Origin: Candidatus Omnitrophota bacterium
GTDB taxonomy: Bacteria > Omnitrophota > Omnitrophia > Omnitrophales > Aquincolibacteriaceae
Assembly: GCA_022711115.1 (NCBI GenBank)
Contig: JAKLFP010000001.1
Coordinates: forward strand, 5,183-69,182
Direction of reading: 5' to 3'
DNA: 64,000 bases
The notes beneath the pieces are model-generated. The model ran no database searches. It saw only the letters and a program-made list of their open reading frames with translations, and was not told the DNA's origin. How positions within the stretch are numbered: the stretch's first letter is position 1; each line of letters begins with the position of its first letter. Below, in pieces: positions 5,101 through 37,643 of this stretch. Position numbers and translations under genes: made by a program.

Positions 5101-6873
5101 TCTTGCATCCAACTTTGAATATACCTCAAAAAATTTCAAGGGCGTCCAATCTTCACGGTTTTTGGAATCACGCACCTTGAGTTGGTAGGAATAAATCCCA
5201 GGAGGAATCAAAAGTCCGGCCTCAGTCATTCCCGACCAAACGACTTCCGAAGGCGGTTGCCCGACGCCATAACCGATCCACATTGGTTTTCCGAATTCAT
5301 CACGAATTTCAAGAGCCCATTTCTTGATGAATCTTCCATAATTATTATTAAAAGTGAACACCGGATCTTTTTCCAAAACACCAATGCCCAGCTTCACCAC
5401 AGAAGGCTCCATCTGAACATCCAGCGTCGGGCGGGAGACATCGACCCCTTGCGTCACCATGACCATCAGATCTTTTTTGAAGTTCTCAGGAATACCGGAC
5501 GGCGGCAAGAGTACCGCAAAATTCGCTTTATTCATAATTCCCGGCGTGGTTTTTACAAGATAGGCTTCTTCCGTAACGAATTTTGTACCTTCCGGCAGGC
5601 TGTGCCCGTCGATTTTAATCACATGCCGTCCCGGCGTGACCCCGGGAATATGATAACGCCCATGTTCATCCGTCACGATTCCAATCCCTTCTTCTGTGTA
5701 CAGTCTGACCCAAGGGACACCATCTTCACCGCAATCCTGAACGCTGTTCTGATTGAGGTCATTAAAGACCTTGCCGATGACCGTCCCTTGTTCAAATACA
5801 GGATCCCCTTCGACAGAAAATTGAGTCGTCACTTTTTGTGATAATTTTCCAGGTGTCAAAACATTATCAATGGTCCCTGCGTAATCCGCTTGGACAGAAA
5901 CGCCGTCCACGCTTGATTCCAACGCATACGTCCTACCCAGTTGTACGCCGCTTGAAACCAGCATCACAAAACTAACATGGATCTCTTGATTGGGAACCAT
6001 ATTCCCGACATCCACAACCAGAAAGCCATCGCGATAACCCGCAGGGAGTCCGTTCACTCTGACCGACTGATCCGCATAGTCAAAACCTTGCGGGATTTTA
6101 AACTTCATTTGAGTATTTTGATAAGTATTGCCTGACGCATTTTTAAAACGCGCGTTAATCCCCACAGCATCGCCCGGGGCAACATTTTTTTTCGAAGCAG
6201 ACACTGAAAGTCCTACCGGATTGATGCCGCCGATGGCTTGAGTGACGATTAAGTATCGATTTGCAACGGCCGCACCGGCACTCTTCCGTGTCTTAATCGT
6301 AAAAACAACCCGGTTTGTTTCCTCCGGCGCCGTACCGGCGATTGAAAAAGCCTGATAACCACCCCCCGGAGGCGCTTGGGCCGAGCGAATCGAAAAACCA
6401 TTATCCGACAAATTGATGGGACTGCCGATCAGCTGATCTGTGCCATCTTCATTTTTATGTTTGAATTCAATCGCAATATCACCTCTTCCGGATCCTTGAA
6501 TATTCGTTTCCGCGTAAACCGTAAATGTCACATAATCGCCTGGTTTCACATTGTCATAGGTCTGAAATGTAAAACGATCTGTTCCCGCAGCCGCATCAGG
6601 CAGTTGTAAAGCAGAGCCGTTCGGAAGTGTCGAAAAGGTCCCCGGCGGATTAGGTGCTGTCGTAATCCTTGTTGCCCCGTTGGTATTGTCCCAATTCGCC
6701 GCAGTACCGTTACCAATAGATTGGCTAAAATCGCCATTGCCAAGGACATTGGCATAAGCAAAAGGGGTGTTAGAGGTAAAAAGGAAAACAAGAAAGAGCG
6801 CAAGCGATAAGAAAATACGCGCTGCTTTGTTTTTTTCTTTTTTAGCTCCCCACATCATAGCTAACAATTTCAC
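2128..6873 (-). CDS. giant outer-membrane-type protein (1581 aa): N-terminal signal peptide, extracellular beta-sandwich/DUF11-like and SdrD-B/CarboxypepD_reg-like modules, C-terminal ~700-aa putative beta-barrel ending in Phe
   Basis: Single uninterrupted ORF. Signal peptide ...FLVFLFTSNTPFAYA/NV. Internal segment VIGKVFNDLNQNSVQDCGEDGVPWVRLYTEEGIGIVTDEHGRYHIPGV resembles a Cna-B/SdrD-B fold. The C-terminal half is rich in alternating aromatic/Gly/Asn/Tyr beta-strand patterns and ends ...FIRMTGKF (OMP-type terminal Phe). Confidence 0.7.
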   Translation of the reverse strand: MKLLAMMWGAKKEKNKAARIFLSLALFLVFLFTSNTPFAYANVLGNGDFSQSIGNGTAANWDNTNGATRITTAPNPPGTFSTLPNGSALQLPDAAAGTDRFTFQTYDNVKPGDYVTFTVYAETNIQGSGRGDIAIEFKHKNEDGTDQLIGSPINLSDNGFSIRSAQAPPGGGYQAFSIAGTAPEETNRVVFTIKTRKSAGAAVANRYLIVTQAIGGINPVGLSVSASKKNVAPGDAVGINARFKNASGNTYQNTQMKFKIPQGFDYADQSVRVNGLPAGYRDGFLVVDVGNMVPNQEIHVSFVMLVSSGVQLGRTYALESSVDGVSVQADYAGTIDNVLTPGKLSQKVTTQFSVEGDPVFEQGTVIGKVFNDLNQNSVQDCGEDGVPWVRLYTEEGIGIVTDEHGRYHIPGVTPGRHVIKIDGHSLPEGTKFVTEEAYLVKTTPGIMNKANFAVLLPPSGIPENFKKDLMVMVTQGVDVSRPTLDVQMEPSVVKLGIGVLEKDPVFTFNNNYGRFIKKWALEIRDEFGKPMWIGYGVGQPPSEVVWSGMTEAGLLIPPGIYSYQLKVRDSKNREDWTPLKFFEVYSKLDARAEKNYHPEIPPVGDFNIFKDGKQSIPLVAKPVVRVQGKTQPNNVIKINDTPVTVDPENGMFQKEFFVEPGEYEAKITAITPSGETTSFHKKIKVKDSTFFMVALGEQQFGENFAKGAMETADSDVYRNGFRQDGRMAFFLKGKLKGKFLVKAHYDTADNRSNFFTSLDPNKYYPIYGDGSTRDYEARDTAQRLFLLVEMDRSYAQWGSYKTEFNDTELTTYSRTLSGLKVNYETVGTNIYGDPKRGFKVFSAKSDRQADHNELYATGGTLFYTRNRNMIEGSEKVRVEIRDKIQNMAISSYDLQPGADYEINYEEGRILLTRPLSSVSATDTMTTADMLNGNPVYLIVDYEYDPGPSLDSSTNQGIRGYTDMGDHIKIGATAVNESRPGNDDYNLRGVDATLKFGRNTKITAEYAQSINQQLSNSVSYDGGISYANLSPLHGRHTKDLSEAYLIKAQSKPVKNLEMTGYVQELDPGFSNNNMRSQEGLKKYGLASKYKFTDSLAIRYRFDDGGVVSQLEPLNVTNNSAPYQNMRTHTAQIVYDDGKYLGEIEYQRRNLDPVTSISNITPTMDNQLPFKNGVTGKVGYHINDRLLPYVKVQTVLDGKADQQFGGGVRYEIINNLFAYLEQMFGPLGDSTNFGFERQHGNGVRSYANIRSFDRGIGDKTLSTAIGNSFSLSEHSRFYSERQYSSYQNQDGFSDILGYEGKAGDHWDYGGKFERRHLNNANMQLINDAAQNALARANTFNTVGGNVAYALGKKFRARSYVEIRADQTLPKMSQLVTQNSLQYQINEDVAFLTRFNLGDTMQYNPDNSPATFVELTSGFAIRPVKLDKLNMLARYTYLQDLGSDAQYDNSYYDGFQFDQAAHIFAMDVAYDLNRYFGLVEKLAFKRSSVSTSVGDMLGVNTFLSANRINFHVTRKWDLAIEYRILFQTSSADNLKHGALVEIDREFYEYVRLGLGYNFTDFNDDLRNANNSQSHGPFIRMTGKF

Positions 6874-6879
6874 CTCTTT

Positions 6880-8445
6880 TTAAGAACGATTGCTGGAAAT
6901 GTTAATTCCGAAACGGAGGTCATAATTCGGCGGTTTTGGATTCGGGTCACCATCCTGTTTGACCCGCTGGGCTCTTCCGATGCCGACCCACTCCGCAAAA
7001 ACCTTGGTCTTGAAAAGCCACTGATTATCCTTCCAGCGGTAGCACCTGAACGGCATCCAACGGATTCCCGGTGCTAAAAAGTATTGGTTCTGGTACCAGA
7101 AGGAAAATTCGCTGTTATTGGTGGCATCAAAACGAAGGTAAGGCATAAGAGCAAATTCATCATTGATGGGATTGTCAGGCAAAGGGATACCGGGCAATTT
7201 GATACCAACCATGACCGAGGAATTGGCAATGAGCGCATTAAAACTTTTTTCCGGACCGAAATTAGTTTTATCCACATAGTAATTCCCGTAATACTCCCCC
7301 CATACATACTGGCGAAGATAATCCGTAAATTTCTCGGGACGTCCCTCCACCAACGTCGGAAGTTCGATGCCCCATTCATAAAAAATATCAACACCCCAGA
7401 TAAGATCATAATCCTTGCTGCCCTGGATATCATTTTTGATGTTGTAGCGGTTACCGTACATAATGTAAGTGCGATAGCTGCGTATCCAATCGAGGATCGG
7501 AATACCGCCAAACGGGCGATAATTCTGGAGCCAAACATTACGGCGCAAGGGATACCATTCAAGACCGGCAAAAAGTTTTAAATTATTGCTGTAGGGAGTG
7601 GAGGTAGAATCCAGATTGATCGTGCTTTCCAAAAATGGATCGATCGTGTTCAGAGGAAAGCGGATCCCTTTGAATACAATGCGGTTCGTCCAGTATCCCA
7701 CTTGACTATCGTATTGATTTTCAGAAAGATTGGTGTTCCGCCAACTCGTTTCTCCGAAAGATTGCCAGAGGATCGGTTCTCCCGCGGGAGTCCCTTGGAA
7801 CGGTCCCCAGAGTTTTTCGCCGATATCCATCTGATCGGTAAATTTAAGGATGAGTTCTTCTTCTTTTTTGAACTGTGCCGGCGTTTTGATTTCGACCGGC
7901 GGCTCGGGTTCAACGGGGACATAGACCGGAGCTTCACGGACGAACTTTTCAAAATCACCGCCTTTTGCTTGAACCGATTTTTTCATGGAAGCAATTTCGG
8001 CTGTGGCTTCTCCCGTGGTCTTGTATGCCTTGTCCCCGATCCAATACAGCTCCGTCGTTTTACCGCTCGCGTCAGGAATAGGCAGCTGACGAATCTCAAC
8101 GCCCTCGTACGCGGCTGTTTTTAGATTTTTTTTGATGTATTGGTCGATCTCTTTGATGTCCTTCAAACCGGAAAGAAATCGGGATTTCAAGACCCCTCCG
8201 CCAAAGTCCGTTACAATGGAATATTCCGCTTTCTGTTGCCGGGACGGCGTCTTCAGGATGGAAAAACCGCGAACTTCGTTAATCTTATTGTCGAGTCTTT
8301 GATCGGACGGAGCAAAGAAGTATTCGGCGTAAGGGTTAGGAACGGGCGCTTCAGAAGAAATTCTTGCTTTTTCTTGAGCAAAGGCTGGGATGGCTATGGA
8401 TAGAAAGATGGCGATGAGAAAAATTAAATTTTTTTTAATTTTCAT
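6880..8445 (-). CDS. secreted/envelope protein (521 aa), signal peptide, Trp/Tyr-rich C-terminal half; unknown function
   Basis: ORF with signal peptide MKIKKNLIFLIAIFLSIAIPAFA/QE. Its stop lies 6 nt before the giant OMP start codon (tight coupling). The C-terminal region is W/Y/N rich with alternating hydrophobic residues. Confidence 0.55.
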   Translation of the reverse strand: MKIKKNLIFLIAIFLSIAIPAFAQEKARISSEAPVPNPYAEYFFAPSDQRLDNKINEVRGFSILKTPSRQQKAEYSIVTDFGGGVLKSRFLSGLKDIKEIDQYIKKNLKTAAYEGVEIRQLPIPDASGKTTELYWIGDKAYKTTGEATAEIASMKKSVQAKGGDFEKFVREAPVYVPVEPEPPVEIKTPAQFKKEEELILKFTDQMDIGEKLWGPFQGTPAGEPILWQSFGETSWRNTNLSENQYDSQVGYWTNRIVFKGIRFPLNTIDPFLESTINLDSTSTPYSNNLKLFAGLEWYPLRRNVWLQNYRPFGGIPILDWIRSYRTYIMYGNRYNIKNDIQGSKDYDLIWGVDIFYEWGIELPTLVEGRPEKFTDYLRQYVWGEYYGNYYVDKTNFGPEKSFNALIANSSVMVGIKLPGIPLPDNPINDEFALMPYLRFDATNNSEFSFWYQNQYFLAPGIRWMPFRCYRWKDNQWLFKTKVFAEWVGIGRAQRVKQDGDPNPKPPNYDLRFGINISSNRS

Positions 8446-24995: not shown

Positions 24996-27479
24996 TTATT
25001 CTATGACAAGTTCGCAAAGAATATCTTTTACATTACCTCGAAAGATTTTTTTAACTAGATTTTCAACCTGCGCCGGATCCGGTTTGAGTTCGGGAGATGA
25101 AAGCGCACCGGAAAGCAGTATCGGGATCGGCCCCAAGTGAGCTTTGGTTTCCTTGCTCAGGGATGAAGCCATGCCCGGTAAAATTTTTGAAGCTAGCTCG
25201 GCGGACAGAAAATTATCCGTTCGAAAATTCATAAGCCCGTCAAACCCCAAGGTTCCTTCTCCATCTATAATATAATCTCGGCTTTTAATCAGGAGATCGT
25301 CTGTTGAGATTTTTTCGTCAGAAACTTGCCAATGCAAGTTCATCGAATCAAACTCGCTCAAAGATGGCACCGCATCCTTAATGCGGCTTAAGGGTTCGAT
25401 CGCTGCAATCACGTTTTTGAGATCAAAAGATTGAAACCGACCTTTTGTCACCATCAACTCGCCTTGTCCCTTAAGCGATTTGGCCCCAATGTTCTTGTCC
25501 CACCCTGCTCCTTCAAGTTTGCCTTTCAGCGAAAGTGTCCCTTCAAGAATTTTCAAAGACGCATCCTGACGGCTCAAAAAAAGCCCCAAATTCAAGCCTT
25601 GGATTTCACCTTCACCATAATAACTGGGTTCTTTGCCGTGATAATGGATCCATCCCTTGAGGTTCGCCTGGCCTTCATAGCTTTCGAATTTCAACGAAGT
25701 GATCGCCGCTTTCTTGTCGCTATATTCAATCTCTGTCGAAAGATTCTTCAACGAACGGTCCCCCGGGAAAAGATTCCCCAGGGATTCCTTCACCTGATCA
25801 TAAATATCCGGCTCGGACTTTTTAGATTTATCCTGAAAAATCGCGGCAACCGATTGCCATGCTTCAAATGGCTTGAGTTCTTCGGAAGTCAACTTTCCTT
25901 CCGCTTTTATTTTTTCAAAATCCCCGGTAATTTTGAGATCCGCCATAAGCCTTGACCCTCCCAGATCAAACTGCATCTGACGAGCCTCAAACATCAGCGG
26001 GCTATAATCGATGGACAACACCGCGTTGCTTATCCCTTTGCCTTCCGAAGTGGTTAAAGCACCCTGTTCGATGGTCACATTCAAAATGCGTTCGGCCTTT
26101 TCCAGTTTAAGAAGGTCCCCTTTCCAATCCGCAAGTATTTTTGCATCCCCTGCCAGTTTGTAGTTAGCAAGCGCGGGAATATATTCTTCCCATCCAGTCA
26201 TGGAAAATTTATTTGTAATAAGATTGAGTTGCCCTCTTCCCGTTTTTATATTGAGATCCGCCAAAGTCCCTTTTAAACTCATGTCCTGGAACTTTAATGA
26301 AAAATCGCCTGATATCGTTTCGCCTTTTTGGACCAAAACATCCATGCTCAGATCAAGCGGAACATCCTTGGGTTTGAAAAAATATTGCCCATAAGTAAGG
26401 AGCGTCTGGGCAAGAGCCCAATTGAGATGGACTGATAAATGATCCAGCGTCCCTTCCAAGGACAGGGCCCATTTGTTCGGACCCGAAAATCCAATATGAA
26501 ACGGGAGAGCTTTCTCAAGTCTTGGCCAATATTTCAACAGATTTTCAAGCACCATTTGGGATCCCGTCAGATGCATGCCTGCAATCTCTCCCGTACTGAG
26601 CTTCAATCCCCCGTTCGCTTCAAAATCGCCAAAAGGCATTTTGATTTTCATTTTTTGCAACTTCAGTTCCTCTGTATTATGATTCCAATGTGCCGAAACA
26701 TCCCACTCCATATCGAGAGAAGGCGGTATGACCCATTCTTTTTCCTGCAAAACTTCATAAGTCAGGCCTTTGCCGCTGCCGCTCGCTTTCAGCTCCAGAA
26801 AAGCTTCATTCGCTTTTTTGTGAATCTCCATAAGTGTATTGATCTGACCGGCTTTGAATAAAAAAGAACGTTTGGGGTCATAATTGTTCTCTTTCGCGAC
26901 ATGGTTCATGGAAAGTTCTTTTATTTCCGCAATAAAATGCCCCACTGCTTTGAGCCAATCCCATTTTTCGATTGAATCTAAAATAGCATACCCTTTCACT
27001 GAAAAAACCTTGGATTGACCGTTAACGCTGCTCACAAAATTCAAGGGGATAGGCATCTTCGGACGAATCGCTCCTATCTGAAGAGAGAAATTTTCCAATT
27101 TGACTGGGCTCATGAAGCTTGAGAATGGCAGCGAGAAGTTGGCTTCCCCCGACTGAATAAAAAAAGCGACGGGATCGGCCCGGCCCAAGAAAAGCGGCAG
27201 AATGCTAAAATCAAAGCTTATTTTCTCCGCTTCCACCTTAAGCGACTCATTGACAAAAGTAAGTTGCGGACTTTCAAGAATAAGCTGAGGCTGCGGGAAG
27301 TAAGCTACTTGAAAACCTTGATAGCGGAGCGTACCTTCGGTGAGCGTTTGGATCTTCTGGACAAGCATCTCCTGTATTTTGGGAGACGGAAGCAAGCGCT
27401 TTGTCTGAAACCAAAGACCCAAGATAAAAAACGCGGCAACAAGAACAATGAGGATCAGAAATTGATAGCGTTTTTTCAT
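24996..27479 (-). CDS. AsmA-family-like large envelope protein (827 aa, N-terminal membrane anchor)
   Basis: N-terminal TM QFLILIVLVAAFFILGLWF followed by a long, predicted periplasmic beta-rich region. Size and architecture resemble AsmA/TamB-like proteins. Family assignment is by resemblance only. Confidence 0.5.
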   Translation of the reverse strand: MKKRYQFLILIVLVAAFFILGLWFQTKRLLPSPKIQEMLVQKIQTLTEGTLRYQGFQVAYFPQPQLILESPQLTFVNESLKVEAEKISFDFSILPLFLGRADPVAFFIQSGEANFSLPFSSFMSPVKLENFSLQIGAIRPKMPIPLNFVSSVNGQSKVFSVKGYAILDSIEKWDWLKAVGHFIAEIKELSMNHVAKENNYDPKRSFLFKAGQINTLMEIHKKANEAFLELKASGSGKGLTYEVLQEKEWVIPPSLDMEWDVSAHWNHNTEELKLQKMKIKMPFGDFEANGGLKLSTGEIAGMHLTGSQMVLENLLKYWPRLEKALPFHIGFSGPNKWALSLEGTLDHLSVHLNWALAQTLLTYGQYFFKPKDVPLDLSMDVLVQKGETISGDFSLKFQDMSLKGTLADLNIKTGRGQLNLITNKFSMTGWEEYIPALANYKLAGDAKILADWKGDLLKLEKAERILNVTIEQGALTTSEGKGISNAVLSIDYSPLMFEARQMQFDLGGSRLMADLKITGDFEKIKAEGKLTSEELKPFEAWQSVAAIFQDKSKKSEPDIYDQVKESLGNLFPGDRSLKNLSTEIEYSDKKAAITSLKFESYEGQANLKGWIHYHGKEPSYYGEGEIQGLNLGLFLSRQDASLKILEGTLSLKGKLEGAGWDKNIGAKSLKGQGELMVTKGRFQSFDLKNVIAAIEPLSRIKDAVPSLSEFDSMNLHWQVSDEKISTDDLLIKSRDYIIDGEGTLGFDGLMNFRTDNFLSAELASKILPGMASSLSKETKAHLGPIPILLSGALSSPELKPDPAQVENLVKKIFRGNVKDILCELVIE

Positions 27480-27585
27480 GGCCCTTGATTTCTCGCTTTA
27501 AGCCCATCGTCTTTGTAAAGACTTCGGACCGGGAGAACTGCAATTACTGGTTTGAATTCAATTGCACCGCCCCGACAGGGTTGTA

Positions 27586-27613
27586 ATTATAATCATCCAG
27601 GAATCCTTGGCAA
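27586..27613 (-). promoter_or_regulatory. promoter for the AsmA-like gene: TTGCCA-17 nt-TATAAT (minus strand)
   Basis: Reverse complement reads TTGCCAAGGATTCCTGGATGATTATAAT. It is located ~110 nt upstream of the ATG at 27479. Confidence 0.55.
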
Positions 27614-27668
27614 CCTATCAGGATAAAAGCGAGGGCTAATAAGAAAAGTCCGAAAAAAAAGAACCGCA

Positions 27669-28067
27669 TTAACGTTTTGTAAATTGGAAGCTTCTGCGAG
27701 CACCCTTGCGACCCGGTTTTTTCCGTTCTTTTTCCCGCGGATCACGCGTCATAAAACCACCCTTACGCATGGTCGCACGCATCTCGGGATTGAAACTCAC
27801 AAGTGCTCTTGCTATACCGAGTTGAATTGCCCCAGCCTGTCCCGAAACACCACCGCCTTCCACGCGTGCCCGGACTCGTACTTGTCCGATTAAGTTAGCG
27901 GATTTGAGCGGTTGCTCGACAAGCATTTGAAGGTTTGCGCGTTTCAGGTACTTTGCAGAATCCTGACCGTTAACAATGAAGCCCTTTTGCCCCGGAAAAA
28001 CCCAAACACGGGCAATAGCAGATTTACGGCGTCCTGTAGCATAAAAAGATGTGGCAGAAGCTGTCAT
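27669..28067 (-). CDS. rpsI: 30S ribosomal protein S9
   Basis: GRRKSAIARVWVFPGQ... and the C-terminal ...FQFTKR typical of S9. Confidence 0.9.
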   Translation of the reverse strand: MTASATSFYATGRRKSAIARVWVFPGQKGFIVNGQDSAKYLKRANLQMLVEQPLKSANLIGQVRVRARVEGGGVSGQAGAIQLGIARALVSFNPEMRATMRKGGFMTRDPREKERKKPGRKGARRSFQFTKR

Positions 28068-28069
28068 AC

Positions 28070-28501
28070 TTATTTAACCTCAATTAAAGTGGGTTTTTGC
28101 GCCTTATTCCGATATTCGGCTCCCGCATAAACGCGAAGCCTTTTGAGCATCACATCACCGTTGCGCGTCTTGGGAAGCATACGGGAAACCGCGCGCATAA
28201 TAATTTCAGTCGGTTTTTTTTCCATAAGTTCTTCATAGGTATAAGTTTTCAAGCCCCCGGGAAAACCCGTAAAATGCTTATAGATCTTATCCTCTTTCTT
28301 TTTCCCTGTCACAAGAACTTTCTCGGCGTTAATGATGATCACTTGATCCCCTGTGAGCATATCCTTGGCGAAGCAGGTCTTCCCCTTACCGATAAGAAGG
28401 GTTGCCACACGCGTTGCGAGGCGCCCCAGGGTTTTCCCCGTGGCGTCAATCAAATAGCTCTTACGATTAATGTCTTTGTCCTTTGGGATAAAAGTCTTCA
28501 T
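28070..28501 (-). CDS. rplM: 50S ribosomal protein L13
   Basis: MKTFIPKDKDINRKSYLIDATGKTLGRLATRVA... Start trimmed to the MKTF codon. Lies 2 nt upstream of rpsI. Confidence 0.9.
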   Translation of the reverse strand: MKTFIPKDKDINRKSYLIDATGKTLGRLATRVATLLIGKGKTCFAKDMLTGDQVIIINAEKVLVTGKKKEDKIYKHFTGFPGGLKTYTYEELMEKKPTEIIMRAVSRMLPKTRNGDVMLKRLRVYAGAEYRNKAQKPTLIEVK

Positions 28502-28751
28502 AAATCTCTCTTCTATGATCAATATCAATTAGGGGAAACTGTATAGGAGGAAAATACTTTCCTGCAGCTTAGATTTCCCGAAAAGTTGACAAAGTATACC
28601 AAAGCCCTTGGAACCTGTCAAAACTATTTGGAAAAATCTTTACAACTTGATTCTCTGCTTATAAAGGAGTAAATTCCTATGTTTTCTTTTCTTGATTCTG
28701 ATACGCTAGTAAAATAATTTTTATATTATCAGAAATCGTATTAACCTCATT

Positions 28752-31700
28752 TTATTCCAACGGCACATAATACAATCCGCGTGTGTTCACGATCATGCGG
28801 CCCACCGTAGCGCTGGGATCATCCACCACCAAAATAATCGCCTTGATCTGGGTCGCGTCAAATCCAGCAATCCCCACACTCTGCAGCACGGCGTTAGAGA
28901 TCGCGATCCTTCCGTTCGTCAGATTGACTCGCACCGTCACCTTCCGTCCATTAGCGTCTTCCACCTCAACCTTGTAATACCTCGCACCCGTCACATTCAC
29001 ATCCAACACTATTGGCGCTGCCGCCGCGTTGAAATAGGCTCCCGGGGAAAATAACATCATCGCTGCAGCCCAACGCTGATTCCCCCCGGCCGCTAAATTA
29101 AAATCCATCACAAATTGATTCGCTGACGGCTGCACGAAACTCGCCACCGTCGTATGCGCCACGGCCTCAATCGGAGAAACGCTCGGCTGCAACGCAATGA
29201 AATCCGTCAGCGGCGCTGTTGTTGTCCAGGAAATCACGGGAATATACGGATACCCTCCCAACCGGACTTGCAACTGCCCTGTTTTTAAACTGATATTGTT
29301 ATTCTCGACAACGAAATTTACATTTTTGACATGTGCCAAATCCACCCCGGTTAAAGCGTTGATCGGTATACGGTAAAATTGCTCCGTTATTCCAACGTTC
29401 AACAGGTAAATCATAGCGCGACCGCCGTTGGCGTCTTCAACCTGGAACTTGATCCGACCGGTCCCTGCCGAAAGTTTCAACCCTACGACAATCGAGGAGA
29501 TACTTCGTAAATCTGCTGCCTCAACCGCCGGGGTCCCAAAATCATCAAAACTCGACAGCAAAAGAGACCAACTTCCCGCGGTTGTCACATTATATTGCAG
29601 CGCTGACACCGATGAAGAACTCTGAAACACACTGGACTGCCCGGCTCCTCCCCCCTCGATAGCAGTTACACTTCGAATTCCTGGAAGCGTGCTGATATTG
29701 CTAATGCCCAGTGTCGGATCTGTTGTTACGGTTGGTTCGTAATACAACCCACGGGTATTGACCGTCAGTGTCCCCGTTGTCGCGCTTGGATCATCCACCA
29801 CCAAAATAATCGCCTTGATCTGGGTCGCGTCAAATCCAGCAATCCCCACACTCTGCAGCACGGCGTTAGAGATCGCGATCCTTCCGTTCGTCAGATTGAC
29901 TCGCACCGTCACCTTCCGTCCATTAGCGTCTTCCACCTCAACCTTGTAATACCTCGCACCCGTCACATTCACATCCAACACTATTGGCGCTGCCGCCGCG
30001 TTGAAATAGGCTCCCGGGGAAAATAACAGCATCCCCGCCGCCCATCGCTGTGACCCTCCGTTCGTCAGGTTGTAATTCAGCGAAAATTGACTGCTGCTTG
30101 ACTGTGTCAAACTCGTGACCGTATTGGCCGGACTCGGCTCGATCTCGGACACCGATGGCCGCAACCCGCTGAAATCCGTCAGTGGTGCTGTCGTCGGAGG
30201 AACCAATGGAACATAAGCTAGCCCCTTGGTCTCTACCGCCACCTGACCGCTTGCCCCCATGTGCGCACGATCCGCGACAAATAAAATTTGAGCCACTCTC
30301 GTCGCATCAATCCCCATGCCCGCGAAATTAAGAGCGTAATTCTGAGTCGTCCCGCTCAGGTTTAAATAATAGACCGCCACCCGCCCGGTCGTGTCTTTCA
30401 CCTCGACCTTCAACTGCTTCCCCGCAGGACCGTTCGCCGCCAGCACTAGCCCCGAACTCAAATTCATCGCCGTACCAATCCAAACATTGTTATTGAAATA
30501 ACCGTTCCCCGCAGAGCTAAACACAAAATCGTCCGAGTCCGCTAACGTGTAATTCATCGCGAAATTGCGAGACGAGGTCTGCGTGACCGCAATCGTCCCG
30601 TTCGCAGTCGCCGTCCCCACCGCCCCTGACCCGCTGCTTAAAACCGGAACGTTCGGAAGCTGTGTAATCAGGCTCTGATTGTAAACCGAACCGTTCACAA
30701 CTGGCGTATACGGATACTTTCCAAACCGGACTTCTAAAGCTCCTATCTTGTTCGTCACTTTGTGGGTTTCTAAAATAAAGTTGATATTCTTTACATGCGA
30801 GAAATCAAAAGACGTAAATAGCGTGCGCAACGCACCGATCGGAATCTGGACAAATTTCTCCGTCGTGGTGATATCGGTGGCTATCACCTTCGCCCGGTGC
30901 CCGCTCGCGTCTTCAAACTCTACATAAACCGATCCGCTTCCACTTGCGAAGCGTAATCCCGCTATCAAGGTTGTTGCCGTGCTTAGATCATAACTCTCAA
31001 CCCCCGCGGTCCCGAAATTATCAAAGGATGAAATGCTCCCCGCATAACTTCCCGCCTGACTCAGGTTATAATTCAACCGGAACCGGTCGGCGTCGTACTG
31101 TACCAAATTCGCAGCCCCGGCCGGATTGGAAAATACCGTCAAACTCGGGAAAGAGTAACTCGACGGAACCGCAGTCCCCGGAACCCCTATGATCACCGGA
31201 ATGTAATACATCCCGTTCACTTCCACGTTCACCTGGCCCGTGGCCTGCATATGACTTCGATCGGCAATAAACGCGACCTGAGCCACTCTCGTCGCATCAA
31301 TCCCAAGCCCTGTCAGATTGATCGTGTAATTTTGCTTCGTTCCGTTCAAAGCCAAATACACCACCGCTTGCTGGCCGTTCACGTCTTTGATCTCCACTTT
31401 AAGCTGCTGGCCCAAAGCGCCTTGGGCCGCCAAAGTCAAACCAGCACTCAAATTCACGGTCTGGCCATTGAAATGCGTGTCATCGGTAAAATAGCCATTA
31501 CTTAAATATGCGAACACAAAATCGTCCGCGTCCGCCAAGTTATAGTTAAAGCTGAAATCTCGCGGCGAGGTCTGCGTGAGCGTGATCGTCCCATTCGCTA
31601 TCCCGTCCACGGACCCGCTCCCGGAATTCAAAATCGGCTGATTCGCAAGTTGCGTGATCAGCGAGGGATTGTAGGTCGTACCCGAAATGCTCAAAAAAAG

Positions 31701-34544
31701 TCTCTGTAAGGTAGCCAGATCGACACGAATCGTGCCATTGATCACGGCGATTTTCCCTGCGGATTCATAGGTAATGGATTGAAGTGCTATTCCGTTTAAC
31801 GCCAACTTAGCCGCAGGATCACTGATCCGCTGCAAATAAGTCGTATGAGGAACAGGCGTGGGATACAAGGGTCCTTCAATATCATAAATGACCGTTGACC
31901 CATCCGGCGAGACATCATAAACGCCTGTATATCCACCATAAGGATCCATCCGCGTTGCGATATTCTGCACCTGGCCAGTGACTAGATTCATCAGCTGAAG
32001 CGTGTACCGGCTATATCCCCCCACACGTTCATAGAGGGATTGAAACGCATAATTTTTATTTGATGTTGCGAGCGTCCAGGTCGCCTTCCAGAAACCTGTC
32101 GCGGTCTCATATTCATAAACATGCATCGCGGTAACAATGACCGCTATCTTTTTGCCGTCTTGCGCGGTCACAAATTTCAAAGCTTCGATCTTTTCACCCG
32201 TAATGGATGTCCGAGTAATGCCTCCGCCAGACAGGAGCGCCGGCAATGATTGAATATAAATCACATCCGTGGGCGGAATGGGAGAGGTGGTGCGTCCGTA
32301 ACCGTCATAAATGATCTGTTGGCCATCCGGAGAGACATCAAAGCTTCCGGCTTTTTCAAAAGCCCAGACCCAATAATCTTTATTCGTTGTCAGGTCCTTG
32401 AGCGTAATCGTACCGCCATCGACCTTAAACGCATAATTCGCATTCGATGCCGCCCGCGTCCAGCCGGCCGGCAACGGCGGCATCAGATAAAGTCCTCCTG
32501 TCGTACGAATGTCGACTCGCCCCGTTTTATTGGGCAGATTGGCATTTTCAAAAATAAAGGCCATTTGAACAATATGGGTCAGATCCAGGGCCGGAAAAAA
32601 TTGCCGGATCATGGAGATCGAAATCGATCTTGTGCTGTAAGTCGACGCCAGCCCGCTCATCCAGAAAAAGGCAGAATGACCGGTAGCATCCTTGAGCTCG
32701 AATTTCAGACAACGAGCAGTCCCCGAACAGGCTGCCGTCGTCTTCATGTCAAAACTAACCGCACTCCAATTGCTGATGTCCTTCGAGCCTCCAGAAAGTG
32801 ATGCGAAATTAATGACCGCTCCCGAAAAACTTCCCACCGGCACAACATTATAATTAATAGAAAATTCCATCGGAGAGCTCTGGCTTACAACCGGCATCGT
32901 AGTCCCACTGCCAAAAACATCAAGAAATGGCGCCGGCACAAGTTTTACGGTCGTAAGATCGATATGATAAGTCCAGGCAGGATTCGCTGTGTCCACCAAC
33001 ACTTCATTCCCTGACATCTGAATCACATCCGGCCGATTCGCAGGAGAGGCATTGATAAACACGTATTGCTTCAAAGCTCCTTCCTGCAGTGCTTGAATAC
33101 AAACATTGATCCCGCCGCCTGCTACCCGCTCAAGATAGATGATCTTTGTTTCATCCGGCGTAATCACCGGGTATCCCCAAAAATCGTTCTGCCTTGTCTG
33201 CACCACATCCACAATATAGATATGGCCAGTCACAAGATTTTGAACTTTCAGTGTCGTGGTCCCGGTCATAGGATCCTGTGGATTGGAAAAGCCATACTGA
33301 TACGCATATTTCGTATTCGATGGCACATACGTCCAACCGGCCAGAGCAATCGGATCCGGATAGGCTCCTTTGCCGAGAGCTGGAGAACCGGGCTGAAGAC
33401 GATAATTCCCCTGCGCAGCATTCACAAACTTCGGATCCGCAATTATATTTCCCTGGATCCGGGTCTCGACGCTGGGCGGCAATGCGCTGCCGTAATAGCT
33501 TCCTTTTTCCGTATTGTTGAAGAAAATATTTCCTTCTACGGCCGCAAAACCGCGGCTAGGTGTTTGTCCCCAGCAAAATTCATAAATGGAAGCATAGGTA
33601 CTGCCGGTAATAATGTTGTTGCGAACCACGGGTTTGACACCGTTAAGCAAATTGATCCCGATACGGCTGTTCACGATCGTATTATTTTTGATGACCGCTC
33701 CGGAGGCTGATGTGAGAGGATGCTGGATCGAAAGGTTATTATTCAGGAAAAGATTATATTCGATGAGGGCATTTTGACCGGACCGCAGATAAATTCCGTA
33801 ATTTGCATTATTTCTTATGTTCGTTCCGGAAATAATAACATTATCTCCTTCGACTCGAATAGCGCTGAACGGCGTGCCCTGATAGGCAACCCCGCCAGTG
33901 ATGGTAAGGTTTCCAATCCTGTTATTACCGCTGGCAACAATAATATCTTCATACCGACCCTGGCCGCTGATAATGGTTGTTTCTCTATTTTCACCCTGAA
34001 GATTAACACCCGGTTTCAAAACAAGCGATTGAAGATAAATACCGGCATCAAGGAGAACAACATCCCCTGCTTGCGCTTGATTAATGGCTGTCTGGATGGA
34101 TTCGCCTGCACGCACTCGGATGATACTGAATTTCGCCACCGAATTTGCATCCAAAACATTATCCTTCTCTTGCGCAGGAACAAACGCAAGAGAAGGATTG
34201 CCGTCCTGCTGGAGTGGTGTTGTCGATGCTGAGGAAACAGATAAAGGATTAGGATTCTGAAATTCGAAACCCGAAGGAATTTGTGTTTGCAATTTCGGAG
34301 CGGTTGTGTTCGTCGTTTGATTCGCATCAAATTTCACAACAGGAACTAATTCCTGGCGCTCATTTTGTGTCAATGTCGCTATAGCTGCAACGGAAGTGGG
34401 CACAGGAATCCCTTGAAAAATAAAAAAGGCGGTTACAATAATTGCAACCGCCTTCTGGGGTAATTTATGATTTCGATTATTTTTTGTGTTATTTGTGTTA
34501 CATGACTTCTGCCATTTTCTTTTCTGCGAGTCGAGGGTAGCCAT
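28752..34544 (-). CDS. giant modular exoprotein (1930 aa): N-terminal signal-anchor, right-handed parallel beta-helix (PbH1/pectate-lyase-like) domain, PD40/TolB-like SPDG repeats, then six ~160-aa beta-sandwich modules of three sequence types
   Basis: Beta-helix block IQTAINQAQAGDVVLLDAGIY...NNTIVNSRIGINLL...RNNIITGS...GNIFFNN. SPDG..IIYD PD40-like repeats. Repeated modules A (FDNFGTAGVE.../FDDFGTPAVE...), B (SLITQL...SGSGS...TQTS...) and C (LFSPGAYFNAAAAPIVLDVNVTGARYYKVEVEDANGRK...). SD AGGAGGTG precedes the ATG. Confidence 0.7.
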   Translation of the reverse strand: MATLDSQKRKWQKSCNTNNTKNNRNHKLPQKAVAIIVTAFFIFQGIPVPTSVAAIATLTQNERQELVPVVKFDANQTTNTTAPKLQTQIPSGFEFQNPNPLSVSSASTTPLQQDGNPSLAFVPAQEKDNVLDANSVAKFSIIRVRAGESIQTAINQAQAGDVVLLDAGIYLQSLVLKPGVNLQGENRETTIISGQGRYEDIIVASGNNRIGNLTITGGVAYQGTPFSAIRVEGDNVIISGTNIRNNANYGIYLRSGQNALIEYNLFLNNNLSIQHPLTSASGAVIKNNTIVNSRIGINLLNGVKPVVRNNIITGSTYASIYEFCWGQTPSRGFAAVEGNIFFNNTEKGSYYGSALPPSVETRIQGNIIADPKFVNAAQGNYRLQPGSPALGKGAYPDPIALAGWTYVPSNTKYAYQYGFSNPQDPMTGTTTLKVQNLVTGHIYIVDVVQTRQNDFWGYPVITPDETKIIYLERVAGGGINVCIQALQEGALKQYVFINASPANRPDVIQMSGNEVLVDTANPAWTYHIDLTTVKLVPAPFLDVFGSGTTMPVVSQSSPMEFSINYNVVPVGSFSGAVINFASLSGGSKDISNWSAVSFDMKTTAACSGTARCLKFELKDATGHSAFFWMSGLASTYSTRSISISMIRQFFPALDLTHIVQMAFIFENANLPNKTGRVDIRTTGGLYLMPPLPAGWTRAASNANYAFKVDGGTITLKDLTTNKDYWVWAFEKAGSFDVSPDGQQIIYDGYGRTTSPIPPTDVIYIQSLPALLSGGGITRTSITGEKIEALKFVTAQDGKKIAVIVTAMHVYEYETATGFWKATWTLATSNKNYAFQSLYERVGGYSRYTLQLMNLVTGQVQNIATRMDPYGGYTGVYDVSPDGSTVIYDIEGPLYPTPVPHTTYLQRISDPAAKLALNGIALQSITYESAGKIAVINGTIRVDLATLQRLFLSISGTTYNPSLITQLANQPILNSGSGSVDGIANGTITLTQTSPRDFSFNYNLADADDFVFAYLSNGYFTDDTHFNGQTVNLSAGLTLAAQGALGQQLKVEIKDVNGQQAVVYLALNGTKQNYTINLTGLGIDATRVAQVAFIADRSHMQATGQVNVEVNGMYYIPVIIGVPGTAVPSSYSFPSLTVFSNPAGAANLVQYDADRFRLNYNLSQAGSYAGSISSFDNFGTAGVESYDLSTATTLIAGLRFASGSGSVYVEFEDASGHRAKVIATDITTTEKFVQIPIGALRTLFTSFDFSHVKNINFILETHKVTNKIGALEVRFGKYPYTPVVNGSVYNQSLITQLPNVPVLSSGSGAVGTATANGTIAVTQTSSRNFAMNYTLADSDDFVFSSAGNGYFNNNVWIGTAMNLSSGLVLAANGPAGKQLKVEVKDTTGRVAVYYLNLSGTTQNYALNFAGMGIDATRVAQILFVADRAHMGASGQVAVETKGLAYVPLVPPTTAPLTDFSGLRPSVSEIEPSPANTVTSLTQSSSSQFSLNYNLTNGGSQRWAAGMLLFSPGAYFNAAAAPIVLDVNVTGARYYKVEVEDANGRKVTVRVNLTNGRIAISNAVLQSVGIAGFDATQIKAIILVVDDPSATTGTLTVNTRGLYYEPTVTTDPTLGISNISTLPGIRSVTAIEGGGAGQSSVFQSSSSVSALQYNVTTAGSWSLLLSSFDDFGTPAVEAADLRSISSIVVGLKLSAGTGRIKFQVEDANGGRAMIYLLNVGITEQFYRIPINALTGVDLAHVKNVNFVVENNNISLKTGQLQVRLGGYPYIPVISWTTTAPLTDFIALQPSVSPIEAVAHTTVASFVQPSANQFVMDFNLAAGGNQRWAAAMMLFSPGAYFNAAAAPIVLDVNVTGARYYKVEVEDANGRKVTVRVNLTNGRIAISNAVLQSVGIAGFDATQIKAIILVVDDPSATVGRMIVNTRGLYYVPLE
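28817..29068. repeat. copy 1 (extreme C-terminal module) of a 252-bp segment 100% identical to 29780-30031
   Basis: Direct comparison of the two stretches. Identical from GGATCATCCACCACCAAAATAATCG through GGCTCCCGGGGAAAATAACA. Flanking DNA is only ~60-70% identical. The track also shows the same antisense ORF (VALGSSTTKIIALIWV...) twice. Confidence 0.9.
29780..30031. repeat. copy 2 of the 252-bp perfect repeat (internal module, 963 bp upstream of copy 1)
   Basis: See copy 1. Encodes the identical 84 aa LFSPGAYFNAAAAP...VVDDPSAT in both modules. Confidence 0.9.
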
Positions 34545-34653
34545 GACCGCACCTCCTGTTTTTAGTTTTCAAAGAAATTTATCTTTCTTTTTAGCTCCCC
34601 CGAACACTTAACACTTTTCAAAAAACCTTAAAAAGTATTCTAAAAAAAAGATT

Positions 34654-34682
34654 TTCTGAAATTAATATTAACACATTTTAAT
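34654..34682 (-). promoter_or_regulatory. promoter of the giant exoprotein gene: TTGACA-17 nt-AATATT, followed by a ~100-nt 5' UTR
   Basis: Reverse complement reads TTGACAATTTATTAAAATGTGTTAATATT. Perfect -35, AT-rich -10. Confidence 0.5.
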
Positions 34683-34729
34683 AAATTGTCAAGCCTCCGC
34701 TTCTTTTTGCTAGGCGCAATCAGAAAGCA

Positions 34730-35476
34730 CTAGTACGTAACCCTTAATAGGGTAAGCCCTTTGGATGGAGCTGTCATGCCTGCTAGACGGCGGTCTTTAG
34801 ATTGAAGAATGGCTTTTATTTCTTCCGGCTTCCGCTTGGACCGCCCTACTTCCATAAGCGTTCCAACCATGTTGCGGATCATGTGATAAAGGAATCCGTC
34901 CGCTTCGACATGAAAAATAAGTAAATGCCCTTGCTTCTTGATCCGAAATTGTCTGATTGTGCGAACACAGGAACGTTCTTTTTTCATGGCTGAGATAGAC
35001 GTAAAAGAACGGAAATCGCGTTTTCCGAGAAAATATTTTGCTGCCTGTCGCATCCAGGCAACATTCAAAGAATACGGCACATGAAAAACTCGCTTCGCCA
35101 GAAGCGGCGAACGGCACGGATGATTCCAGATCCGGTATTCATAGACTTTGGATTTGACATTATAGCGGGCGTGAAAATCAAGCGGGACTTCTTTAATCTC
35201 TTTCACCACGACAGGCGCCGGTAAAAGTGCGTTCAATCCCTTTTGAATCTGTCGGATGTTCCTGCCACTGGTAGTTTTGAAATTGACGACTTGTCCCTCG
35301 GCATGGACGCCGGTATCCGTTCTGCCGCTTGCAGCTGCGATTTTTATTTTGCGATCAAAAAAACTTGAGAGCGCCTTTTCGAGTGCCTCTTGGACGGTGG
35401 GTTGGCTAGGCTGGCGTTGAAAACCGAAGAAAGTCGAGCCGTCGTACTCTAAAACGAGCTTGATGTTGCGAACCAT
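34730..35476 (-). CDS. truA: tRNA pseudouridine(38-40) synthase
   Basis: MVRNIKLVLEYDGSTFFGFQRQP...RTDTGVHA with the catalytic Asp motif. Confidence 0.85.
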   Translation of the reverse strand: MVRNIKLVLEYDGSTFFGFQRQPSQPTVQEALEKALSSFFDRKIKIAAASGRTDTGVHAEGQVVNFKTTSGRNIRQIQKGLNALLPAPVVVKEIKEVPLDFHARYNVKSKVYEYRIWNHPCRSPLLAKRVFHVPYSLNVAWMRQAAKYFLGKRDFRSFTSISAMKKERSCVRTIRQFRIKKQGHLLIFHVEADGFLYHMIRNMVGTLMEVGRSKRKPEEIKAILQSKDRRLAGMTAPSKGLTLLRVTY

Positions 35477-35520
35477 TCCTCCCGCTCCCTTTGAAACAAA
35501 TCCCGGAAAAATTTTGCGTT

Positions 35521-36531
35521 TTATTTTATGCTAAAAGCAATCTCTGCAATCTGAACGGCATTCAGTGCGGCGCCTTTGCGGATCTGATCACCCGAAACGA
35601 ACATGGAAAGACCGTTCGCCACCGTTGTATCTTCGCGAAGACGGCCCACAAGGATATCGTCCTGTCCGGTCGCCTCAAGCGGCATCGGGAAATAATTCTT
35701 TTCACGATCATCAACAAGCTTGATGCCGGGCGCGTTCGAAAGCAGCGTTCGTACCTGCTCAACCGATATCTTTTTTTCCGTCTCGATAAAAATCGCCTCG
35801 GAATGAGCCCGGAGCACCGGCACTCGCACGCAAGTAGCCGTCACTTGAATATCAGGCGCATGAAAAATCTTTTTGGTTTCTTTGACCATTTTCGTTTCTT
35901 CTTCGCAGTACCCGTCCGCCCCAATCTTGCTGTTGTGAGAAAACACATTAAACGCAATCTGGTGCGGCAGCACTTTCGGTGTCACCTTTTTTCCTTCCAG
36001 AAAATCCCTGGCCTGGATTTTGAGCTCTTCCATAGCCTTGGCTCCGGCACCGCTTGCAGCCTGATAGGTAGCAGACACAATGCGCTTAATTTTGACAGCT
36101 TTATGAATCGGAAAAAGAGGTACAAGCATGATGATGGTGGAGCAATTCGGATTCGCAATAATCCCTTTATGTTTTGCGATATCTTCCGGATTGATCTCAG
36201 GCACCACCAGCGGGATCTCGGGATCCATGCGAAAAGCACTGGTGTTATCCACCATCAGCGCACCGGATTTCACGATATGGGGCGCAAGTTCACGGCTGAC
36301 CGCTCCGCCGGCGCTGGAAAGAACCAGATCAAGCCCTGCAAAGGAATCCGGTTTGGCTTCCTCGACCTTATAGGTTTTCCCCATGAATTCGATCGACTTC
36401 CCGGCCGAGCGACCGGACGCCAAAAGTTTCAACTCCGCGATCGGAAATTTTCTTTCCTTGAGAAGCTCGAGAAATTCCTGTCCCACCGCGCCTGTCACGC
36501 CTAAAACTGCTACTTTCAATTTCTTGCTCAT
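35521..36531 (-). CDS. asd: aspartate-semialdehyde dehydrogenase
   Basis: VAVLGVTGAVGQEF N-terminus, active-site NPNCSTI. Confidence 0.9.
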   Translation of the reverse strand: MSKKLKVAVLGVTGAVGQEFLELLKERKFPIAELKLLASGRSAGKSIEFMGKTYKVEEAKPDSFAGLDLVLSSAGGAVSRELAPHIVKSGALMVDNTSAFRMDPEIPLVVPEINPEDIAKHKGIIANPNCSTIIMLVPLFPIHKAVKIKRIVSATYQAASGAGAKAMEELKIQARDFLEGKKVTPKVLPHQIAFNVFSHNSKIGADGYCEEETKMVKETKKIFHAPDIQVTATCVRVPVLRAHSEAIFIETEKKISVEQVRTLLSNAPGIKLVDDREKNYFPMPLEATGQDDILVGRLREDTTVANGLSMFVSGDQIRKGAALNAVQIAEIAFSIK

Positions 36532-36560
36532 TGCTATGTCCTTCCGTTCTATATTAATTT

Positions 36561-37643
36561 TTATGCAATTCGTGCTTTCGGATCCAGTCCTTTAACCACC
36601 AGATCCCCCACCTCAGTTGTGGAATATCCCATTTTGCCTGCCGCAAGGCTCTTGAGCTTTTTCGCCGTCACCCATTTGACAGATTCTTCAATTTCCGCGG
36701 CAGCCTTCGTTTCTCCGAGATGTTCCAAGAGCATCTGCCCTGCGCAAATGGCCGCCAACGGGTTGATTACGTTCTTTCCTGTGTATTTGGGCGCCGAACC
36801 GCCGATCGGTTCGAACATGGAAACTCCTTGAGGATTCAAATTCCCGCCGGCTGCGATCCCCATACCCCCCTGGATCATAGCACCAAGATCCGTGATGATA
36901 TCGCCGAACATATTGTCCGTCACGATCACATCAAACCAATCGGGATTTTTCACCATCCACATACAGGTAGCATCCACATGGGCGTAATCTCGTTTGACAT
37001 CCGGATAATCCTTCGCGCCGATCTCATGAAAAACGCGTTCCCAAAGGTCAAAGGCATAGGTCAACACATTGGTCTTCCCGCAAAGAGTCAGTGTTTTTTT
37101 CTTGGAATTGCGTTTGCGGGTGTATTCAAAAGCATAGCGCAGGCAGCGCTCCACACCGTGACGCGTGTTGCGGCTCACTTGAACCGCAACTTCCTGGGGT
37201 GTCCCTTTATTGATGAATTCGCCTTCCCCTACATAAAGGCCTTCGTTATTTTCGCGGACTACGACAAAATCAATGTCTTCCGGTTTTTTATTTTTGAGGG
37301 GACAATCCACTCCTGGAAAAAGCTTCACCGGCCGAAGGTTGATATATTGTTCGAGTGAAAAACGGAGCTTGAGCAGAAGCCCCTTCTCAAGAATGCCGGG
37401 TTTAACATCCGGATGCCCCACCGCACCAAGATAGATCGCTTGATACCCGCGCAATTCTTCAAGCACACTGTCAGGAAGGACCTCACCGGTCTTGAGATAA
37501 CGTTCCCCTCCGAGATCGTATTCATGCCGATCGAGTTTAAAACCATATTTCTCCGCCACCGCGGTCAGAACCTTGTTCCCTTCTCGCACCACTTCACCGC
37601 CGGTTCCGTCTCCAGGGATCACTGCTATTTTATATGTCTTCAT
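36561..37643 (-). CDS. isocitrate/isopropylmalate dehydrogenase family enzyme (3-isopropylmalate or tartrate dehydrogenase-like)
   Basis: [19 protein letters not shown]-terminus and the [25 protein letters not shown] block of the IDH/IMDH family. No other leu genes are nearby, so the substrate is not assignable. Confidence 0.7.

Follow-up and report, generated by a model that had tools for sequence, protein, structure and literature searches.

An identical 241-bp block in two diverged modules of an Omnitrophota secreted-protein gene as a probable tract of intragenic gene conversion

Two modules of one gene from an Omnitrophota bacterium, strongly diverged over the rest of their length, share 241 nucleotides without a single difference, and in all likelihood ectopic gene conversion within the gene, over a tract of at least 241 nt, produced this block. 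The gene lies on the minus strand (28752-34544) of the window, the whole 64,000-nt stretch of DNA analysed here, and according to the ORF list and its translation it encodes a modular secreted or anchored protein of 1930 aa. One copy of the identical core (28816-29056, minus strand; aa 1830-1910, with partial end codons) belongs to the C-terminal module, C2, and the other (29788-30028, minus strand; aa 1506-1586, again with partial end codons) to an internal module, C1. An ungapped comparison at an offset of 972 and blastn both give this exact run.

The two copies are 972 bp, or 324 codons, apart and in frame, with a unique interval of 731 nt (29057-29787) between them. A direct-repeat scan from 26 to 33 kb returned a single 300-nt family, at the same spacing, and a blastn search of the whole window with the core as query found these two copies and no third. 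The sequence-only reading had put the block at 252 bp and 100% identity; its position and nature stand, but its length comes down to 241 bp of identical DNA. At the protein level the identity covers 83 aa (LFSPGAYF...DDPSAT; C1 aa 1507-1589, C2 aa 1831-1913), encoded by 249 nt whose final codons, for P, A and T, carry three synonymous mismatches (C2 positions 28815, 28809 and 28806). The flanks are 62% identical over 227 aligned nucleotides (53-70% by segment), in agreement with the 60-70% estimated earlier, and every one of the 88 differences in the 468-nt alignment of C1 and C2 falls outside the 241-nt run. Across 20,000 permutations the identical runs reached 59 nt at most, and a hypergeometric bound for a chance run of 241 nt is about 1e-30. 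At third codon positions C1 and C2 agree completely in the core (identity 1.0), as against 0.52 in the N-flank and 0.30 in the C-flank; because synonymous sites are identical throughout the core, protein constraint cannot explain the block. Upstream of the core boundary C1 and C2 remain 85% identical for about 40 nt, and then drop to about 55%. This shoulder is compatible with earlier tracts that had other end points, that is, with concerted evolution of the domain centre.

Self-comparison and a purpose-built HMM resolve seven homologous modules of about 155 aa in the protein, which runs from an N-terminal signal or anchor through a beta-helix and PD40-like segments to D0 ... A1 B1 A2 C1 B2 C2. 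All lie on the minus strand: C2 at 28755-29219 (aa 1776-1930), B2 at 29232-29714 (aa 1611-1771; within the interval between the cores), C1 at 29727-30191 (aa 1452-1606), A2 at 30201-30677 (aa 1290-1448), B1 at 30696-31178 (aa 1123-1283), A1 at 31191-31667 (aa 960-1118) and D0 at 32472-32960 (aa 529-691). A1 and A2 are 59% identical in amino acids and 63% in nucleotides and contain no identical block, and B1 and B2 are 39% identical in amino acids. Self-blastn found no donor for the divergent N-flank of C1 among the gene's other modules. The right-handed parallel beta-helix (NosD / pectate-lyase-like; Pfam Beta_helix/NosD) occupies 33429-34019 (minus strand, aa 176-372). By eye, the N-terminus (34374-34544, minus strand) consists of a basic stretch and a hydrophobic segment (AVAIIVTAFFIFQGIPVPTSVAA), a motif that is kept in homologues P0002-P0009 and is taken for a putative signal peptide or anchor. 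At its other end the 1930-aa protein closes with ...GLYYVPLE, and no known type of C-terminal anchor can be seen there. The protein is identical to NCBI HOW58183.1, which is recorded for a Candidatus Omnitrophota MAG as a right-handed parallel beta-helix repeat protein, and is also encoded on JGI contig Ga0116241_10000053; altogether the identical product is recorded on four contigs of differing lengths, possibly from the same read sets.

The modules are beta-jelly-rolls of 155 aa with a CBM11/30-like fold, a length inside the roughly 150-180 aa of that fold, and their identity to the structural matches is 7-14%. The identical core falls in the central strands of the jelly roll. None of 23 modules matched Pfam, and a sequence search of the PDB with the modules returned no match. 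They are thus like CBM11, CBM30 and CIA30-type modules in fold, but are not members of the CBM11 or CBM30 families at the sequence level. The family is a rare one: a search of 1.84 billion representatives yielded 72 proteins at E <= 1e-3, and so far it occurs mainly in contigs that are labelled Omnitrophota or are syntenic with the window. As an unannotated CBM-like module family it deserves a Pfam entry.

A syntenic orthologue on another Omnitrophota contig (P0002 on L002; gene order asd-truA-gene-rplM-rpsI) allows the conversion reading to be tested. It was the only contig recovered when the C-module alignment was searched against a metagenome collection, and the same alignment found no match among GTDB species representatives. 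The orthologue has the module order A1 B1 A2 C D, with a single C. Its C module is 81-85% identical in nucleotides (codon alignment) to the N-flank of C2, and 77% identical in DNA to the C1 and C2 cores alike. In a three-sequence test with this one outgroup lineage, the core has 54 informative sites and every one of them unites C1 with C2; in the flanks that grouping has the support of 14 sites, against 55 that unite C2 with the orthologue and 22 that unite C1 with the orthologue (Fisher p = 5e-27 for core against flank). The N-flank of C2 mostly sides with the orthologue's C module. Paralogue grouping in the core against orthology in the flanks, as read from these site patterns, is what ectopic gene conversion classically leaves when it follows the divergence of lineages. 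The 22 flank sites that side with C1 mark the orthologue itself as a mosaic, and lineages have exchanged the gene's central part (aa 694-1250). Since both orthologue and gene are mosaic, the phrase "after the species split" times the event relative to the module genealogy and not to the genome tree. The direction of transfer is not decided by third positions, at which identity to the orthologue is 0.59 in the core as against 0.73 and 0.61 in the N-flanks of C2 and C1.

Another Omnitrophota protein with two C-type modules (P0029 on L010) served as a control. Its module pair shows no homogenisation: third-position identity in the core is 0.46 and the longest identical run is 19 nt, with amino acid identity of 0.61 in the core and 0.44 in the N-flank. 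The missing homogenisation in this pair, together with the results from the orthologue, therefore identifies a lineage-specific event in the window gene. The sequence-only reading had proposed that a core no less diverged than its flanks, if found in relatives, would argue against conversion. P0029 shows divergence of that kind and its bearing is the opposite, for it excludes constraint and strengthens the case for conversion. The larger claim of that reading, recent gene conversion or concerted evolution between diverged modules, is borne out by the identity at synonymous sites, the uniform grouping of core sites and the unhomogenised control. The homogenisation comparison comprises one orthologue lineage with DNA and one control paralogue pair.

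Further patches of the same kind occur in relatives. Contigs L004 and L005 represent the orthologue's species in other samples, and their first nucleotides fall within the C module, at its nt 150 and 289 respectively. Over 2308 nt L004 differs from L002 at only 10 positions, all of them within one 72-nt patch of the C core (P ~3e-13), and 7 of the 10 changes are toward the core sequence of the window. On this alignment the patch is a short recombination tract in the same core in another population. In a third syntenic relative (P0022 on L007) two copies of another domain, with flanks that do not align, share a patch of about 295 nt at about 97% identity, in which up to 94 consecutive nucleotides match exactly. 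A protein with at least 19 tandem C-like modules (P0025 on L012) has longest exact repeats of 80, 59 and 47 nt, which is weak evidence from a sample biased toward arrays that short reads can assemble. P0027, from the slot that the window gene occupies, carries two C modules, and by eye they show no long identical protein stretch.

If the block is a conversion tract, part of one C-type module would have been copied non-reciprocally over the matching part of the other within the same gene, after the modules had reached their present flank divergence and after the C2 type had split from the orthologue's module. The pathway would presumably be RecA-type homologous recombination or template switching, on the same chromosome or between sister chromosomes, and recombination may have been seeded in the better-conserved middle of the domain; the donor would be either C1 or C2. 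The outcome is two perfect 241-bp direct repeats in frame with one another, which could act as a substrate for deletion or duplication of a B2 + C unit. Recombination between the cores would lose or gain exactly one such unit (972 nt = 324 codons), and a loss would leave a protein of 1606 aa. As the direct repeats are a recombination substrate, the gene is predicted to vary in length within the population. No strain variants of it came to light, and the two full-length strain-level sequences of the orthologue (L002 and L006) are equal in length.

Could the block have been produced by the assembler? A single consensus core might have been threaded through two positions, or a loop mis-resolved, so that the identity, the copy number or the order C1-B2-C2 is wrong. 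A perfect 241-bp repeat at a spacing of 972 bp is a classic de Bruijn loop; it is at or beyond short-read and k-mer length, so the number of (B2 + C) units is the assembler's decision, and bubble-popping may have erased a few true differences in the core. Contigs L004 and L005 break within the C module, and L007 has a 100-N scaffold gap inside its slot gene. However, both copies in the window have unique flanks and are in frame in one unbroken ORF with intact domain boundaries, the same product stands on the four contigs of differing length (with read sets possibly shared), and comparable patches are found in independent assemblies of relatives. Furthermore, judging from assembler behaviour, sequences as diverged as the C1 and C2 flanks have so few k-mers in common that they would not be merged. 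The cores must therefore have been very highly identical to begin with, and the conversion signal would survive a few erased SNPs. An artefact is unlikely as the source of the block; the chance that the copy number is off, or that strict 100% identity should read about 95% or more, is larger and unquantified. Short-read MAGs are accordingly not to be trusted for the module number and exact sequence of this gene.

The remaining alternatives accept the identity as real. The whole C module might have been duplicated recently, its flanks then being replaced or diverging fast under diversifying selection, in a family that visibly shuffles modules (slot genes of 1487-2057 aa in varied orders) and in a gene whose central part has moved between lineages. 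Yet flank synonymous sites are near saturation (0.30-0.52) beside a core with zero changes, a contrast that point mutation cannot yield; replacement of both flanks needs two extra recombination events, so that one conversion tract is more parsimonious; and the flank genealogy puts the C1/C2 split before the split of C2 from the orthologue. Recent duplication is therefore improbable. Selection might instead keep the core identical, whether it acts through the protein or through an RNA or DNA element embedded in the sequence, and the core is indeed the most conserved part of the domain across the family, as the amino acid identities of P0029 illustrate. Against this, the orthologue's core is only 77% identical in DNA and 0.59 at third positions, the longest identical run in the P0029 pair is 19 nt, and the region has no match to Rfam families; constraint as the cause of the identity is effectively refuted. 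A diversity-generating retroelement with template and variable repeats, or another programmed cassette system, is brought to mind by the placement of one repeat at the extreme C-terminus of a surface protein, superficially like that of a variable repeat. The copies nevertheless match at every position and show no adenine-specific mismatches, both encode protein and are homologous over entire domains, and they fold as a CBM-like jelly roll and not as a C-type lectin. A scan of the eight neighbouring genes, over about 5.7 kb toward lower coordinates and 3.1 kb toward higher ones, found no reverse transcriptase, recombinase or mobile element. With identical repeats and no reverse transcriptase among its neighbours, the gene is not a target of such a retroelement, and the probability of this explanation is negligible.

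The gene sits in a conserved genomic slot. Its neighbours, icd, asd and truA upstream and rplM, rpsI, an AsmA-family gene and rnc downstream, are all housekeeping genes. The slot genes of different species measure 1930, 1487, 2057 and 1964 aa and differ in module order and content; the segment of about 300 aa that contains D0 (aa ~396-693), for example, is missing from the orthologue at that position. Between the lineages that exchange slot-gene segments, housekeeping genes are saturated at synonymous sites. A tentative and rather doubtful extension of the gene-conversion reading is that these Omnitrophota keep a dedicated contingency locus between truA and rplM, holding one large secreted protein of beta-helix and CBM-like modules that is continually reshuffled by intragenic conversion, module gain and loss, and segment exchange between lineages, as cassette-like variation for attachment to host or prey. 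The C1/C2 block, the 72-nt patch in the orthologue's strains and the ~295-nt patch on L007 may all be conversion tracts of such a locus. If so, the 241-bp repeats would provide in-frame length switching on the fly, and attachment would vary in an ultra-small, possibly host-dependent phylum. A conserved slot with a fast-evolving, partly laterally exchanged surface protein could in any case inform the study of how nanobacteria attach to their partners.

Cultured pathogens provide well-known cases of intragenic conversion and concerted evolution among surface-protein repeats, and the C1/C2 tract does not overturn current understanding. It is a new example of a familiar process in a poorly known phylum, clean and statistically overwhelming, and it is accompanied by an outgroup, by a negative control and by events in relatives that arose independently. 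My literature search on intragenic gene conversion in surface proteins found nothing specific. Ectopic gene conversion and concerted evolution have been documented in PE/PPE and other antigen loci of M. tuberculosis (PMC13061034, PMC12046097) and in rRNA operons (PMC6002687). The present case resembles these in the non-reciprocal homogenisation of diverged paralogues over a tract of a few hundred bp, in the combination of a long identical run with phylogenetic incongruence relative to the flanks, and in affecting the kind of surface or antigen gene that short reads resolve poorly. The known cases, however, involve separate genes, whereas here the partners are two domains of the same ORF with one module of another type between them, and the host is an uncultured Omnitrophota.

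A second point of comparison is the Periscope Proteins (SasG, Rib, Sgo_0707), surface proteins of variable length with tandem domains that are highly identical in DNA (PMC8201768, PMC9704523). Like them, the 1930-aa protein is large, secreted and built of many domains, identity within its DNA would permit RecA-mediated loss or gain of domains in frame, and domain number differs, in this case between the syntenic-slot genes of relatives. In Periscope Proteins, however, adjacent repeats are highly identical, whereas here adjacent modules differ in type (39-59% aa), the identity is confined to half a domain in one non-adjacent pair (C1/C2), and no C-terminal wall anchor is visible. The tandem array of highly identical adjacent domains that defines the group is absent from this protein.

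The closest setting lies within the phylum itself. Large and giant extracellular proteins of Omnitrophota have been described with CBM-like beta-sandwich repeats, beta-helices, a proposed role in cell adhesion and assemblies that break at repeats (bioRxiv 10.1101/2023.11.21.568195); in a term search of that preprint, "gene conversion" and "recombination" were absent. The protein described here differs in having only 1930 aa, a beta-helix of the pectate-lyase/NosD type and a different repeat family, but it shares with those giants the phylum, the extracellular modular design and the CBM-like repeats.

The gene order asd-truA-[large modular gene]-rplM-rpsI-asmA-rnc is kept in at least five Omnitrophota contigs, represented by the loci L001, L002/L006, L007, L008/L009 and the contig that encodes P0027. 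In the window the slot lies at 24996-37643. The gene occupying it varies in length (1930, 1487, 2057 and 1964 aa, plus one fragmented case), as does its module content from locus to locus, and the slot looks like a hypervariable locus amid housekeeping genes.

The middle of the 1930-aa window gene, which comprises the PD40-like segments and modules A1 and B1 (~30795-32464; aa 694-1250), was compared with positions 3875-5545 of contig L002, which carries the syntenic orthologue P0002. Third-codon identity over this segment is 0.62-0.95, with a peak of 0.93-0.95 at aa 874-933, whereas the housekeeping genes on either side (asd, truA, rplM and rpsI) and the beta-helix part of the window gene itself reach only 0.43-0.47 between the two loci. 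This much lower divergence of the middle than of the remaining locus suggests that the lineages swapped gene segments at a time when their genomes had long been separate. Furthermore, the beta-helix and the shared PD40 region of the window gene are separated by an extra segment of ~300 aa (32465-33358; aa ~396-693), which consists of a PD40-like piece and module D0. The orthologue lacks this segment at that point and instead carries a D-type module, 36% identical to D0 at the amino acid level, at its C-terminus. With the D-type module internal in one gene and C-terminal in the other, the two differ by module rearrangement.

Variation is also found among strains of the orthologue's species, which are identical across 2.2-2.3 kb outside one 72-nt patch in the core of the C module (243-314 of contig L004; 104-175 of contig L005). 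L004 differs from L002 by 10 mismatches within this patch, and L005 has two extra mismatches upstream of it; both contigs start within the C module. In the third syntenic relative, contig L007, a patch of ~295 nt with ~97% identity (5471-5763 versus 6629-6921) is shared by two copies of a PD40/propeller-type domain, the flanks of which are not alignable. The slot gene of this relative is interrupted by a scaffold gap of 100 Ns (3893-3992) bordered by a 63-nt repeat of 94% identity, and its N-terminal part appears to have been split off from the called ORF.

Near its N-terminus (34374-34470; aa ~25-57) the window gene encodes a hydrophobic motif, ...FFIF.GIP.PTS(F/V)A, which, by direct reading of the sequences, is conserved among the beta-helix homologues P0002-P0009. 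Within this group of Omnitrophota proteins it may act as a common signal peptide or sorting signal.

The window gene has seven copies of a 155-aa module (28755-32960), and the module is carried by P0001-P0005 and P0019-P0034, with 18-21 copies in some proteins (P0025 and P0026). It has no match in Pfam, and a search of 1.84 billion representatives found it in only 72 proteins. The module is an unannotated domain family, and its fold is a jelly-roll resembling those of CBM11, CBM30 and CIA30.
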